Sequence record: DRR723986_750
DNA: 52,021 nucleotides
Direction: 5' to 3' (one strand)
The translations under genes and the position numbers were made by a program. This document shows, one piece after another, positions 1,031-44,620 of the stretch. Positions within the stretch are counted from its first letter, which is position 1; every line of letters begins with the position of its first letter. The notes beneath the pieces are model-generated. The model was not told the DNA's origin. It did no database searches and saw only the letters and a list, made by a program, of their open reading frames with translations.

Positions 1031-1046
1031 GGTGATTCAAGTCACA
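1031..1046 (-). promoter_or_regulatory. CRP-type box upstream of the EF-like cyclase gene
   Basis: Minus strand TGTGA-CTTGAA-TCACC (1 mismatch); -10-like TAATCT at 1010-1005, 20 nt downstream. Confidence 0.65.
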
Positions 1047-1294
1047 AAGCGTTTTTTCAGGTCGAAAAACCCGGTCCGTTTTCAAGTTGTGGCCGGCAAA
1101 AAATCCGCTACCACCTTCCCTAACGTCCTTTCGTGTGAACGTAACTCAAAAAATGGCAGCAACTGTCTGTTGAAAAGTGGTTTTTAGAAAAAGGATTGGC
1201 TATAGTCTGCAACTGATTTTAGTGGGGTCATCAACGGACCGTTGCGGTCCGGATTCAGTTGGTTGCAGGGACAGCTTCTTCTATTTGACGTTCC

Positions 1295-1310
1295 TGTGAC
1301 GCGTATTACA
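1295..1310 (+). promoter_or_regulatory. CRP-type box upstream of caspase-like gene 1
   Basis: TGTGA-CGCGTA-TTACA (1 mismatch), about 105 nt before ATG 1416. Confidence 0.6.
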
Positions 1311-1415
1311 GAAACATAGTGCCATCCGGGGTACCTGTTCCTCTCAAGAGGACAAAGACCTCGTGTAAAGATCGGTTCAACCGACAGGCAACCATGATCT
1401 ACGAGAGGACAGGAT

Positions 1416-41810: not shown

Positions 41811-41830
41811 CTGAATATCTCCCTCAACGA

Positions 41831-44548
41831 TTAAAACAGATCATATCTGGGACGGTTCTGTTCCCACTGATGCTTTACCAGTGCAATCAGGGCCTCATCG
41901 CCTTCGGAAGGCGCCCGTCCAGAGGCTTCAAAGAAGTCGGCCAGGGCTTCACGGGTTTTCCGTCCCGGCTGCCCGTCAACCGGTCCTGGATCGAAACCGA
42001 GATCGGTCAGGGTCTGTTGCAACACCTTTGCCTTGAGGTTTTTCCGCGCATCGCCGAGAGCGGTCTTTGCCTGCTCGGCAGCCTGCGAAGACGGTTCAAC
42101 AGCCACAGCCATGGCAAGCATGCGAACACGGTCCTGGCCTGCGGCATCGCCATCTTGCTGGCCAAGCATCCACGCGGTGTTGAATGCACCCCAGGGATCT
42201 CCACGCTGGGCACTTTCACGGAACCAGCGAGTTGCCTCTTCCGAGTTTTTCTCAACACCCTGGCCATTGTAGTAAAGCAGTCCGATGGCCGTGCCTGCGG
42301 CAGGGTGCCCGCCTTCATGTGCTTTCATGAACCAGCCAAGTGCTGCTTCATAGTCCTGCGGCACACCTTTACCGTCGCGGTACAGCGTCCCCATGTTCAG
42401 GTAGCCATAAATGTCGTTCCGCGATGCCGAGCGATTGTAGTAATAAACGGCGCGGTCGATGTTTTCTTCCACGTGCTGGCCATTCAGGTAGAAGCCACCA
42501 ATGGCATTGAACGAGAACGTGTGGCCTGCCTCCACCGACTGCAGCAGTTTGTCCAGACCGTCCTTTTCGTTCTGGGCCGTGCCTTCGCCCTTGATCTCGG
42601 CCATACCAAGCGAATGCAGAGCATAGGCGTCTCCCCGCTCCGCAGCCTTGCGGTATAGGTCGACAGCCTTCTCGCGGTCACGATCGATCCCGGCACCCAG
42701 GAAATACATGCGCCCCAGCACCTGGCCGGCACGAACATGTCCCATCTGGTAGGCCTGTTCAAAGTAACCGACAGCCTGTTGCAGGTTACCGGCGGCAAAG
42801 GCTCCACGGCCGCGCTGGAAGACGAACCGGCCGATCTCCGGGTAGGTAGCCATCGCTTCGGCGCAGGCCGTATCCACAGCCGCCGCATCCAGATCGTTGG
42901 CGAGCCGTCCTTCCGTAACCGCCTGCAAATCGAAAGGCTGGGTTGCCAGGCGATCGCATTGCGTTACACGGGGTTGAACGATCTGCGTGATGGTTCTTGC
43001 AGGCGTTCCTTCGACAGCCGGCAATTCCAGAGCAAATTTCCGCGCTTCACTTTCGCTGCCGATCTGCGGACGGACGGTCAACGTCGCGAGCGCAGAAACA
43101 GGAAAACGGTCGCCGGCCTGCAGCAAGCGGTTGTCGGAAGCAAGCTGCAGGTCCGTATCGACAGAGACAACCTTCAGCCAATCGCTTGTTGCCGGCAGAT
43201 CCTCGACGGGCGCATCCGGATAGACGTTTACGGGGCCGGTGCCGATATCAGCTTCTACAGCTCCCTTCGAGGCCGTGTTGCCCAGCCATGACAGGAGAGC
43301 TTCAAGCCGCTTTGTGCGGTTTTCTTCCACCTGCTCGTTTTGCACCGGCGTTTCGGCCTGTGCGACCGTAATTGAGGCGATCGCGGATGCAGAACCACCC
43401 CATTGGTCCTCTACCTCGTAGGAGATCAGTTCCACGTCGCCGGGTTTCGAGCCTTCCGGAAAGAACTCGAGACTGGCAAGCTCTGCCGCATCTATCACGT
43501 CCCCCTCAGCAACGGCCCGGCCTCCCGGCAGCTTCAAGGTACCTTTTTCAGGGAGCAAGGTGAGCTTCGCCTTCAACGTTCCACCTTCCGGCTGAACCGG
43601 TTCGGGGATGCTGATCGGAACGGATTCAGCCGATGCAGATACACTGACCCTGTGATGGGCAGTCACGATCGGAGCCGGTTTGGGCGGTACGAAATAGAAG
43701 CTGGTGACGAGCGTTGAATCCTCATATGGGATCTGCTGGCCGCCGGTCTTGCGAACCACGTCATCGCGAACCTTGGTCATCAGGTCCTTGATCTCGAGCG
43801 CCGGATCAAGAGCATTTTCGACCACAGAAGAGGTGAACGGGCTCATCGGCCCCTTACCGTCGTAGGCAACCTGACCAGGACGCGTGGCATAGGAGATGAA
43901 TGTGCCGAGCTTGTTCGGAATCCGGCGCAGCCCTCTGGTCTTTCCGAGCGAATATTCTTCCTCGCCCCAAAACAGGCTTGCGATTTCGAACGGGTTGTCC
44001 CGGCAGGCGTCAAGCATGACGATCTGCAGGCTGGAAGCGGCCTTCATGTAGTCCAGCAGATGGGACACCTTGAGGCTTTCGAATTCCAGGTCGTATTGAG
44101 AGGACAGTTTGGCGTCGACAGGAAGAATGAAATTGGATTCGCCAACCTGAAGCGCATGACCGGAATAGTAGAACAGCGCCGTGTCGCCGTCATTCAGTTC
44201 CCGCAGAAACCGGCGTACGACCTGCTCCAGATCCTTCTTGTTGAGGTCCGTGCCGATCGTCACATCAAAATCGGCCTCCCGAAGGATCCTGGCGATTTCC
44301 GTCGTGTCCGTAACGGGATTTTCCAGCGGGGTCACATACTGGTATTCCTGGTTGCCGATGACCAGCGCAACCCTGCGCCCGTCCTCGGTCTGTGCCATCG
44401 CCTGGGCGGAAGGCAATGCAAGAGCAGCACCCACCGGCAGGCTCAAAAGGCCCATCCTGACAGCTTTCCTCAACCGGCCAACAGGCTTGGTGGAGGTCAT
44501 AGATTTGCCAACTCGTGTGGCAAGAGGTCGATAATCCCGATTCTGCAT
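41831..44548 (-). CDS. Exported caspase-like peptidase C14 with Sel1 repeats and peptidoglycan-binding domain
   Basis: RVALVIGNQEY, YYSGHA, LDACRDNPF; several Sel1 repeats (e.g. GTLYRDGKGVPQDYEAALGWF); GFDPGPVDGQPGRKTREAL. Confidence 0.9.
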   Translation of the reverse strand: MQNRDYRPLATRVGKSMTSTKPVGRLRKAVRMGLLSLPVGAALALPSAQAMAQTEDGRRVALVIGNQEYQYVTPLENPVTDTTEIARILREADFDVTIGTDLNKKDLEQVVRRFLRELNDGDTALFYYSGHALQVGESNFILPVDAKLSSQYDLEFESLKVSHLLDYMKAASSLQIVMLDACRDNPFEIASLFWGEEEYSLGKTRGLRRIPNKLGTFISYATRPGQVAYDGKGPMSPFTSSVVENALDPALEIKDLMTKVRDDVVRKTGGQQIPYEDSTLVTSFYFVPPKPAPIVTAHHRVSVSASAESVPISIPEPVQPEGGTLKAKLTLLPEKGTLKLPGGRAVAEGDVIDAAELASLEFFPEGSKPGDVELISYEVEDQWGGSASAIASITVAQAETPVQNEQVEENRTKRLEALLSWLGNTASKGAVEADIGTGPVNVYPDAPVEDLPATSDWLKVVSVDTDLQLASDNRLLQAGDRFPVSALATLTVRPQIGSESEARKFALELPAVEGTPARTITQIVQPRVTQCDRLATQPFDLQAVTEGRLANDLDAAAVDTACAEAMATYPEIGRFVFQRGRGAFAAGNLQQAVGYFEQAYQMGHVRAGQVLGRMYFLGAGIDRDREKAVDLYRKAAERGDAYALHSLGMAEIKGEGTAQNEKDGLDKLLQSVEAGHTFSFNAIGGFYLNGQHVEENIDRAVYYYNRSASRNDIYGYLNMGTLYRDGKGVPQDYEAALGWFMKAHEGGHPAAGTAIGLLYYNGQGVEKNSEEATRWFRESAQRGDPWGAFNTAWMLGQQDGDAAGQDRVRMLAMAVAVEPSSQAAEQAKTALGDARKNLKAKVLQQTLTDLGFDPGPVDGQPGRKTREALADFFEASGRAPSEGDEALIALVKHQWEQNRPRYDLF

Positions 44549-44604
44549 AACGTCCTCAGCGCTTAAATCCGCGTGTAACTATCGCGCTAGAGCTGCTGCC
44601 TGTC

Positions 44605-44620
44605 TGTGATGGAACTCACA
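44605..44620. promoter_or_regulatory. Perfect CRP consensus box upstream of the caspase-Sel1 operon
   Basis: TGTGA-TGGAAC-TCACA; GATAGT 21 nt downstream on the minus strand; 56 nt before ATG 44548. Confidence 0.72.

Follow-up and report, generated by a model that had tools for sequence, protein, structure and literature searches.

Eight inverted repeats of the form TGTGA-N6-TCACA, spread over the type VI secretion (T6SS) island of a marine Roseibium bacterium, are probably CRP-family sites in class II-type promoters, read by a regulator encoded elsewhere (the best candidate being a CRP that we designate L014-type) and forming part of a cAMP feedback circuit. From sequence we infer that the boxes are bound, that they serve activation and not repression, that cAMP is the ligand and that feedback operates. 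The eight predicted box promoters head essentially every transcription unit of the island.

The T6SS island and its boxes

The window is the whole stretch of DNA analysed, 52,021 nucleotides in length, and its gene map is based on ORFs and Pfam matches only. These identify a type VI secretion island with TssA, B, C, E, F, G, K, L and M, Hcp, VgrG, ClpV and PAAR, together with the accessory components Fha, TagF, PpkA and PppA; the TssJ family had no match among the window ORFs scanned, and no sigma-54 activator gene was found in the window. The genes and operons behind the boxes are listed here.

85..939, minus strand: gene A, 284 aa, first gene behind box A; N-terminus conserved in relatives
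1416..2981, plus strand: Peptidase_C14 (caspase-like) protein with a peptidoglycan-binding domain, behind box B
21858 to ~5337, minus strand: operon running from vgrG (GTG at 21858) through tssM and ppkA, headed by box C
From 22256, plus strand: OmpA-domain gene (GTG at 22256, GGAGG ribosome-binding site), then tssA, behind box D
24632-34497, plus strand: tssBC-hcp-tssEFG-clpV, headed by box E
34589..34885, minus strand: PAAR-domain protein, 98 aa (Pfam PAAR_motif, E = 1.4e-16), behind box G
39025..39705, minus strand: p226, first gene of the cyclase operon; a conserved protein with no match in Pfam or NCBIfam searches
37091..39028, minus strand: class III nucleotide cyclase with a fused CHASE2 sensor (Pfam) and adenylate-type residues
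41831-44548, minus strand: 905-aa caspase-like/Sel1 gene, behind box I

Nine 16-mers had been proposed as CRP-type boxes in a first-pass annotation of this DNA. All nine were recovered at their coordinates and on their strands, as were the hexamers quoted 20-21 nt downstream of them; eight (A-E, G, H and I) stand as boxes, while the ninth, at 26702, turned out to be a chance match. The boxes and their predicted promoter hexamers are as follows.

1031..1046, minus strand: box A, TGTGACTTGAATCACC, centre ~100 nt upstream of the gene A ATG (939)
1005..1010, minus strand: -10-like TAATCT of the extended type (TGG in front), 20 nt after box A
1295..1310, plus strand: box B, TGTGACGCGTATTACA, centre 113 nt upstream of the caspase-like gene at 1416-2981
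1332..1337, plus strand: -10-like TACCTG, 21 nt after box B
21952..21967, minus strand: box C, TGTGTTCTTGAGCACA, two mismatches, centre ~100 nt upstream of the vgrG GTG (21858)
21925..21930, minus strand: -10-like TAGTGT, 21 nt after box C
22154..22169, plus strand: box D, AGTGACTTTCGCCACA, two mismatches, centre 95 nt upstream of the OmpA-domain GTG (22256)
22191..22196, plus strand: invariant block TGG-CACGAT, 21 nt after box D, with a TGn extension; poor as a -10
24468..24483, plus strand: box E, TGTGACCGTGATCACT, centre 156 nt upstream of tssB
24505..24510, plus strand: -10-like TACATA, 21 nt after box E
34942..34957, minus strand: box G, TGTGATCCAGGTCCCA, centre 64 nt upstream of the PAAR gene
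39807..39822, minus strand: box H, TGTGACCATGGCCACA, centre 110 nt upstream of p226
39781..39786, minus strand: -10-like TAATAT, 20 nt after box H, preceded by TGG
44605..44620, minus strand: box I, TGTGAGTTCCATCACA, a perfect match, centre 64 nt upstream of the caspase-like/Sel1 gene
44578..44583, minus strand: -10-like GATAGT, weakly conserved, 21 nt after box I
26702..26717, plus strand: box F, GGTAATTGATTTCACA, overlapping the tssC stop; a chance match, outside the system
47858..47873, minus strand: a one-mismatch site not listed previously, overlying the GTG start codon of a Na/Ca-exchanger gene; due to chance

Placement of the boxes against background

Comparison of the motif with background gives a divided answer. 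The plain count in the window is at background: with up to two mismatches there are 23 matches to TGTGA-N6-TCACA against 20.7 expected from shuffled sequences, of which 31 in 100 reach 23, and there is therefore no overall excess. The placement of the better matches is a different matter. Of the seven sites with at most one mismatch, six fall in non-coding DNA, which makes up 3,724 nt (7.2%) of the window, the seventh being the site at 47858; a first-order Markov simulation predicts 0.078 such non-coding sites, and the maximum in 400 runs was 2. In a prior-free scan of 9,216 inverted-repeat dyads TGTGA-N6-TCACA also ranked first, with 6 non-coding sites and 1 coding. (In both the simulation and the scan the start of the OmpA-like gene was placed at 22272 instead of the correct 22256, a shift of 16 nt that had no effect.) Two of the 16 two-mismatch sites, boxes C and D, are non-coding, which on that count alone is the background level. 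The eight boxes, with 0-2 mismatches, have the form of CAP/CRP-type sites, an inverted repeat with a free 6-bp spacer in which conservation is highest at the G and C of the GTG/CAC cores. Placement in non-coding DNA is above chance for the six.

The nearest genome, G001, which comes from the same or a close strain, contains 75 sites with at most one mismatch, as compared to 48 for the reversed control. Among the seven window sites A, B, H and I were confirmed there; if G001 keeps all seven, the 52-kb stretch would be enriched ~12-fold (7 of the 75 sites). Nine Roseibium loci carry 2.75 sites per 22.8 kb, versus 0.30 in 71 unrelated T6SS loci.

Conservation of the boxes in related genomes

The standing of the weaker sites is settled by conservation: boxes C and D are kept in relatives, and are therefore taken as real, while the sites at 26702 and 47858 are not kept, and are taken as chance. 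Boxes C and D were each found in 6/6 relatives, box C with most of its spacer. At the spot of box A, four of the seven orthologous loci, and G001 as well, have a box with no more than one mismatch, and a -10-like hexamer follows at a 20-21 nt gap in 5/5 copies. Box B, with an identical TTACA half-site, is present in all 7 orthologous loci and in G001; at its -10 spot the relatives have TATATC, TAGGTC, TATTTG, TACTCC, TACTTC and TAAACC. Box E is kept in all 27 other species-representative genomes examined (7 + 20), with TAcATA or TAaATA as the -10 in nearly all 28 sequences. The PAAR gene behind box G was found in only 1 of 9 relatives (L035), where the box centre lies 66 nt upstream of it. Box I is kept in 5/5 related loci that reach that far and is present also in L119. 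The widest sample is that of box H, which has at most one mismatch in 49 of 50 genomes and two in the 50th: 30/30 in the first set, and 19 of 20 in a more distant set, four other genera being represented among them. The suggestion of the first-pass annotation that the cyclase promoter is itself a target of the regulator fits this record.

Among orthologous boxes the spacers drift while the half-sites are fixed, so that the cores are kept, and in the nine related loci (9.7-22.8 kb) every site with at most one mismatch is orthologous to a box of the window. Box F is kept in 0/7 relatives, its PWM score equals background, and in a close strain its last base is altered; the site at 47858 is kept in 0/5. 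The box is absent from eleven paralogous caspase loci elsewhere.

The cyclase operon

Box H heads p226, the CHASE2 cyclase and possibly an M23 peptidase; p226 is present in 63 of the 132 genomes of the family. In alignment with solved adenylate cyclases the CHASE2 cyclase has both metal-binding Asp residues, the substrate Lys and the transition-state Asn/Arg, with Thr at the second specificity position. Thr at this position occurs in class IIIb adenylate cyclases, and the enzyme looks adenylate-specific by its residues. With the cyclase operon behind box H, positive feedback through the cyclase promoter is plausible.

Candidate regulators

The regulator had been predicted to be encoded outside the window, and this appears to hold: tblastn found no CRP-like gene in the window (best E = 0.17), and G001 encodes a CRP with a matching recognition helix. 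This L014-type protein is single-copy, occurs in 128 of 132 Stappiaceae genomes and in 63/63 of those with p226, and its gene has an upstream box of its own in 30/30 loci, although this box lacks the 21-nt geometry described below. Aligned with solved CRPs, its cyclic-nucleotide pocket is intact (motif FGELALLDGRPRSAT, Glu ... Arg-Ser). The best solved relatives are the CRP of M. tuberculosis (Rv3676; E = 1.2e-36) and C. glutamicum GlxR (E = 3e-35; the 4byy chain, which we take to be GlxR). The recognition helix A-R-E-N-V-S-R aligns to S-R-E-T-V-N-K of the former and fits R-E-x-x-x-R/K. With respect to NF008732, the NCBIfam CRP equivalog (cut-off 266 bits), L014-type scores 76.6 bits and the L010-type regulator introduced below 96.7, so that neither passes; by its sequence L014-type is a CRP-subfamily protein and not an orthologue of enteric CRP. 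According to PMC10187061, the residues of RETVGR that recognise TGTGA are the first, the second and the last. With its helix, its pocket, its own box and its distribution, L014-type is the best candidate for the regulator of the boxes.

It is unlikely, in our judgement, that the boxes, although real, are read by the L010-type regulator of the same genome, either by itself or jointly with L014-type. This protein (helix T-R-E-T-V-N-R, closest solved relative S. meliloti Clr, 7pza, E = 5e-30) has the complete set of three base-contacting residues, its cyclic-nucleotide pocket is intact, and its gene adjoins another CHASE2 cyclase, with a perfect box just past that cyclase. Its distribution argues the other way: it occurs in only 40 of 132 family genomes and is absent (E <= 1e-50) from 30 of the 63 p226-cyclase genomes, among them G074, G077 and G115, which keep boxes E and H, and a box within 1.5 kb of the L010-type gene was found in 0/5 relatives.

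Promoter geometry

The class II geometry attributed to these promoters at first pass, with the box near -41.5, fits the position of the predicted -10 elements. The mean -10 score over the eight box families and their orthologues has its sole peak (-1.6) at a gap of 21 nt on the gene side; away from this gap the score is about -4 to -8, and in the opposite direction it is -8.0. A gap of 21 nt is the best offset in six of the eight families. With the hexamer taken as -12 to -7, the box would be centred at -41.5; this value is an estimate from predicted -10 hexamers, because the RNA runs for the locus exist as long contigs only. Candidates for a -35 element are poor, with 0, 3, 0, 0, 2, 1, 0 and 4 of 6 matches to TTGACA at 17-nt spacing. 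What speaks against our main reading is the weakness of several -10 hexamers, such as CACGAT at D and TACCTG at B; the one of box G is ambiguous, being CATTCT at a gap of 20 here and TATACT at a gap of 27 in L035, with the spacing not kept.

The same boxes might act as operators for a CRP-family repressor, which would cover the -35 region, or sit downstream of other promoters further up, and hold transcription down until released by its ligand. A site overlapping the -35 may block RNA polymerase as readily as recruit it, and CAP is described in PMC10187061 as repressing from downstream positions. Promoter-like conserved blocks occur upstream of box E (TTGACA at 24411-24416 and CAATAT within 24429-24442) and 89 nt upstream of box B (TATAGT, 1201-1206); if TTGACA...CAATAT were a separate promoter, box E would sit downstream of its start, in a repressor-like position. 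Such blocks are found at only two of the eight boxes, however, and promoters that depend on an activator are marked by just this combination of a fixed 21-nt distance to the -10 and a missing -35; a roadblock would have no need of so rigid a spacing. Repression is an explanation to which we assign a low probability. That the boxes are read by an unrelated transcription-factor family, or are chance or compositional matches, is highly improbable: the whole-window count is at background and two sites are indeed due to chance, but chance is excluded for the eight by their placement and by conservation across up to 50 genomes, the conserved TGTGA and TCACA positions, on either side of a free 6-bp spacer, are the ones that CRP contacts, and the identical motif precedes a CRP gene in 30/30 loci.

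Comparison with known systems

The predicted promoters resemble the class II promoters of E. coli CAP/CRP in the 16-bp TGTGA-N6-TCACA box, in the inferred distance to the -10 and in being without a -35, and L014-type retains the pocket Arg-Ser as well as the three RETVGR residues that contact DNA. It differs from E. coli CRP in not being the NCBIfam equivalog and in its targets, a secretion island here, carbon catabolism there. Its recognition helix and nucleotide pocket align with those of M. tuberculosis CRP and GlxR, which belong to another phylum and have Lys as the last helix contact where L014-type has Arg. A palindromic consensus is given for the mycobacterial CRP in PMC4117774.

Two alpha-proteobacterial systems are also relevant. 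As presented in PMC10187061, Rhodospirillum centenum CgrA offers a close parallel, a cyclase-containing operon with a perfect CAP-type box, by which the cyclase comes under its own receptor; but CgrA prefers cGMP (pocket RT), is co-transcribed with guanylate cyclases and serves cyst formation, whereas L014-type has an RS pocket, the island cyclase is adenylate-type by its residues, the crp gene is far from the island and the output is the T6SS. The same source states that the two alpha-proteobacterial CRPs studied so far answer to cGMP. Sinorhizobium meliloti Clr, the best solved relative of L010-type, is likewise a cyclic-nucleotide-dependent alpha-proteobacterial CRP; its site, as given there, is TGTT-N8-AACA (alias HGTYHC-N4-GRWACA; PMC10187061), and its helix in our alignment is S-R-P-K-V-N-R, not R-E-x-x-x-R. 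In Vibrio cholerae Hcp/T6SS output is reported to be cAMP-CRP dependent (PMC2726435). T6SS expression there is said to need RpoN and quorum-sensing regulators too, and a CRP box for each operon does not figure in the account that we drew on; in the island essentially every operon is boxed and a cyclase is included.

A proposed circuit

Since nearly every operon of the island lies behind a box at fixed distance, the whole T6SS appears to be switched by a cyclic-nucleotide signal. In the mechanism that we propose, an outside or envelope cue would act on the membrane CHASE2 cyclase to produce cAMP, and cAMP-CRP on the boxes would recruit RNA polymerase; with the cyclase operon among its own targets, the circuit would amplify itself and turn the entire island on together. 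The regulatory principle itself is already known and is textbook material. The circuit is compact, with a single candidate regulator, eight boxes mapped together with their predicted start sites, and a sensor cyclase within the island. For Roseibium, Labrenzia and Stappia our literature searches turned up no study of control by CRP or cAMP. If true, this would be a third alpha-proteobacterial CRP regulon besides those of CgrA and Clr, and the first among the three to combine the canonical CAP box with a class II layout throughout; it bears on how the T6SS is triggered in marine alpha-proteobacteria of corals, algae and invertebrates.

A bolder reading, which we put forward only tentatively and consider rather doubtful, is that the island is a self-amplifying, cyclic-nucleotide-gated attack module. 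Its ancient core would be the box H promoter, p226 and the CHASE2 adenylate cyclase, a combination that at least three other genera have without this T6SS. In Roseibium the core may have captured the T6SS, three caspase-like proteases, the PAAR spike and a nucleotidyl-cyclase effector of the ExoY/EF type, through the evolution of a class II CRP box before each operon; an envelope or neighbour cue perceived by CHASE2 would then throw a bistable cAMP-CRP switch that arms and fires all of them together.

The effector in question would be the product of gene A. Its Pfam search returned no match; among the 120 matches listed of its 337 homologues, PF03497 was found in 5. Profile comparison relates gene A distantly to the class II nucleotidyl-cyclase toxins (EF/CyaA/ExoY): a profile of its family (29 members) matches anthrax EF chains with E = 0.0017 and an ExoY-like cyclase with E = 0.009.

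Gene content of the island

By open reading frames and Pfam matches, the window holds a complete-looking type VI secretion (T6SS) island, with the following features.

Features of the island
21858 (GTG) to ~5337, minus strand: vgrG operon (vgrG, DUF6931, fha, tssK, tssL, tssM, tagF, pppA, ppkA, an ExbD-like gene and an unknown 577-aa gene)
22256 (GTG), plus strand: OmpA-domain gene, then tssA
24632-34497, plus strand: tssB, tssC, hcp, tssE, tssF, tssG, clpV
34589-34885, minus strand: PAAR gene
Flanking the T6SS operons: M23 peptidase gene
37091-39028: CHASE2/class III cyclase, preceded by a 226-aa gene without known family (p226)
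1416-2981, 39867-41492, 41831-44548: three Peptidase_C14 caspase-like genes

The TssJ family has no Pfam match among the island ORFs; since it was not recognised, its role might fall to one of the small ORFs without Pfam domains. The Pfam-less ORFs are 3196-3624, 4207-4638 and 5337-7070 (142, 143 and 577 aa). ClpV shares 79-84% identity with the proteins of nine Roseibium/Labrenzia records, and no full-length match among the rest exceeds 55%; this places the organism in Roseibium (Stappiaceae, Alphaproteobacteria). Comparisons were made on the nearest genome, G001, whose caspase-like protein is 99% identical to that of the window, and on its relatives, in place of the window's own genome.

CRP-type boxes and their conservation

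The first-pass annotation had listed nine CRP-type boxes (TGTGA-N6-TCACA), here called A to I (1031, 1295, 21952, 22154, 24468, 26702, 34942, 39807 and 44605), and the nine 16-mers and all the hexamers it quoted lie where it had placed them. An excess over background is not borne out by the plain count, as 23 matches with up to 2 mismatches occur in the whole window versus 20.7 expected; it does hold for good matches, which are concentrated in non-coding DNA. Six of the seven sites with at most one mismatch fall in the 3,724 non-coding nucleotides (7.2% of the window), for which a first-order Markov simulation gives an expectation of 0.078 and a maximum of 2 in 400 runs. When every 5-mer was scanned as an inverted-repeat dyad with spacers of 2-10 and no prior motif, TGTGA-N6-TCACA ranked first of 9,216 dyads (6 non-coding matches and 1 coding). 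At the same threshold of one mismatch there are 2.75 sites per 22.8 kb in nine Roseibium loci versus 0.30 in 71 unrelated T6SS loci, and 75 sites in G001 versus 48 for the reversed control. Boxes A, B, H and I, which make up four of the seven such sites in the window, were seen in G001; if the other three are kept there as well, 7 of its 75 sites fall inside this 52-kb stretch. Scanned with a weight matrix built from eight of the boxes (all except F), the window shows no additional site of similar strength: the highest untrained score is 11.8, versus 15.1-21.2 for the boxes, whose scores are circular because they trained the matrix.

Nine related loci (9.7-22.8 kb each) share the order of genes between vgrG and the 905-aa caspase-like gene (41831-44548); their sole sites with at most one mismatch are the orthologous ones and an additional site upstream of a PAAR gene in locus L035. 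The box upstream of tssB is present in all 7 loci covering that gene, the box upstream of p226 in 9 of 9, and the box upstream of the 905-aa gene in the 5 of 5 that reach it. Box B, with the same TTACA half-site, is kept in 7 of 7 orthologous loci and box A in 4 of 7; boxes C and D, with two mismatches each, are retained by all 6 relatives compared. Among orthologous boxes the half-sites are constant and the spacers drift. Of 132 species-representative genomes surveyed across the family, 63 have p226. Box H lies ~110-180 nt upstream of this gene in 30 of 30 loci, and all 20 more distant genomes examined have it too (19 at no more than one mismatch, 1 at two), a set that includes four other genera and p226 identities down to 31%. 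Orthologous TssB (at least 79% identity) occurs in 43 genomes, every one p226-positive, and box E was found in 20 of 20 further genomes, or 27 of 27 counting the earlier seven. It follows that eight of the nine boxes on the list are real conserved elements. The exception, box F at the tssC stop, is kept in 0 of 7 relatives and was rejected as a chance match, as was an unlisted site at 47858, which sits on the Na/Ca-exchanger start codon and is kept in 0 of 5 relatives.

Peptidase_C14 paralogues are numerous in these genomes (L115-L129), with 11 matches in G001, three of them consecutive at C1:5.218-5.223 Mb. Among these paralogues CRP boxes occur only at the island copies, and none was found at 11 paralogous caspase-like loci elsewhere. 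The 541-aa caspase-like gene is preceded by a 338-nt gap with no box; GC-rich insertions of 3 and 18 nt in close strains mark a strain-variable repeat there (41549-41574).

Promoter geometry and neighbouring elements

Orthologous sequences were anchored gap-free at the box and scored with a -10 model at every distance between 3 and 40 nt. The gene-side mean peaks only once, at a gap of 21 nt (-1.6); gaps of 20 and 23 nt score -4.3 and -4.4, and all others fall between -4.7 and -8.4. On the far side of the box, the score for gaps of 20-22 nt is -8.0. Six of the 8 box families (A, B, C, E, H and I) score highest at the 21-nt gap. In the box G family, whose spacing differs in its single relative, the gap-20 hexamer ranks second, and the box D family has an invariant TGG-CACGAT block at the -10 place, a poor hexamer with a TGn extension. 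If the hexamer spans -12 to -7, the 21-nt gap would put the box centre at -41.5. Candidate -35 elements match TTGACA at 0, 3, 0, 0, 2, 1, 0 and 4 of 6 positions, and the predicted layout is that of activator-dependent class II promoters, in agreement with the geometry first proposed. The listing of G001 sites covers 50 of the 75, and among eight perfect boxes elsewhere in that genome, about four (L002, L003, L005, L007) have a -10-like hexamer at a 20-21 nt gap, as judged by eye. The locus was found in 14 RNA runs, and the four examined are assembled contigs of 25-165 kb spanning the region; long contigs of this kind yield neither start sites nor proof of transcription. A sigma-54 -24 element at the TGGCACGAT block after box D was considered and dropped, as no GC was seen by eye at the -12 distance.

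Other conserved elements lie close to some boxes. A TTGACA ... GGGTCCTCAATATT block (24411-24442), 26-57 nt upstream of box E, is conserved in 28 species, and so is GTATTTGAC-N-TTGACC (24573-24592), ~40 nt before the tssB start codon; both may represent a second promoter or sites for another regulator. The conserved TGGCTATAGT (1197-1206), 89 nt upstream of box B, contains a -10-like TATAGT. Either this element or the block before box E could be a separate promoter, in which case the boxes there would be operators.

Two stretches of putative RNA structure were also noted. The leader of the first caspase-like gene (1338-1415) has two conserved hairpins before the ribosome-binding site. The tssC-hcp spacer (26718-26860) has four, and because compensating changes preserve them in relatives, they suggest an RNA processing, attenuation or stability element between the sheath and tube genes.

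Candidate regulators

No CRP-like protein is encoded in the window and G001 encodes candidates, which upholds the placing of the regulator outside it. Of the seven full-length Crp/Fnr-family proteins encoded in G001, just two carry an R-E-x-x-x-R helix, the one with which CAP contacts TGTGA (PMC10187061); neither type reaches the NCBIfam CRP equivalog cut-off. The first (L014-type) has the helix A-R-E-N-V-S-R and the pocket motif FGELALLDGRPRSAT, and its best solved relative is M. tuberculosis CRP (E = 1.2e-36). It is single-copy in 128 of 132 family genomes (66-100% identity) and present in 63 of 63 p226-positive ones, and a conserved CGTGAY-N4-ATCACA box precedes its gene in all 30 loci compared, in most of them 60-66 nt before the start codon. 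The second (L010-type), with the helix T-R-E-T-V-N-R and Clr as best solved relative, adjoins a second CHASE2 cyclase (G001:C1:1609109-1612496; L004, L010). It occurs in only 40 of 132 genomes and is absent from 30 of the 63 p226-positive ones, including G074, G077 and G115, which retain boxes E and H. Given this patchy distribution, the near-universal L014-type CRP is the parsimonious candidate partner of the boxes. A perfect box also lies in the L004/L010 region of G001, between the 3' end of the second cyclase and an aminotransferase gene.

Textbook CAP biology covers the box, the helix rule and class II activation (PMC10187061). For alpha-proteobacteria, the relevant passages of that review discuss only CgrA and Clr: the former uses cGMP, with a perfect CAP box at the cyclase-crp operon that encodes it, and the latter has a different box. 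T6SS output in Vibrio cholerae depends on cAMP-CRP (PMC2726435); the pertinent passages of another review (PMC7554612) contain no CRP-T6SS link, and literature searches returned nothing for Roseibium, Labrenzia or Stappia on regulation by CRP or cAMP. The system is well defined and testable, and its interest is chiefly for the biology of marine host-associated Stappiaceae.

The cyclase module and gene A

In alignment with solved adenylate cyclases the island cyclase keeps both metal-binding Asp, the substrate Lys, the Asn and the Arg, and its second specificity residue is Thr; this residue set points to cAMP rather than cGMP. The positive feedback proposed through the cyclase promoter is plausible, because box H heads the operon in every genome examined. 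Since the p226-cyclase operon and box H also occur in genomes without this T6SS (the eight of genus g7, plus g8, g5 and some of g1), the cyclase module looks like the older core of the regulon.

Neither p226 nor gene A, the first gene behind box A (85-939, minus strand), has a match in Pfam, NCBIfam, a single-sequence PDB search or the protein atlas. Gene A belongs to a family of ~270-290-aa 'hypothetical' proteins, and only the family profile connects it, weakly, to the catalytic core of anthrax edema factor and ExoY-like cyclases (E = 0.0017 to 0.009). On the basis of this match and of the invariant Lys51/56/58, Asp166/168 and His217, its product may be a T6SS-delivered nucleotidyl cyclase.
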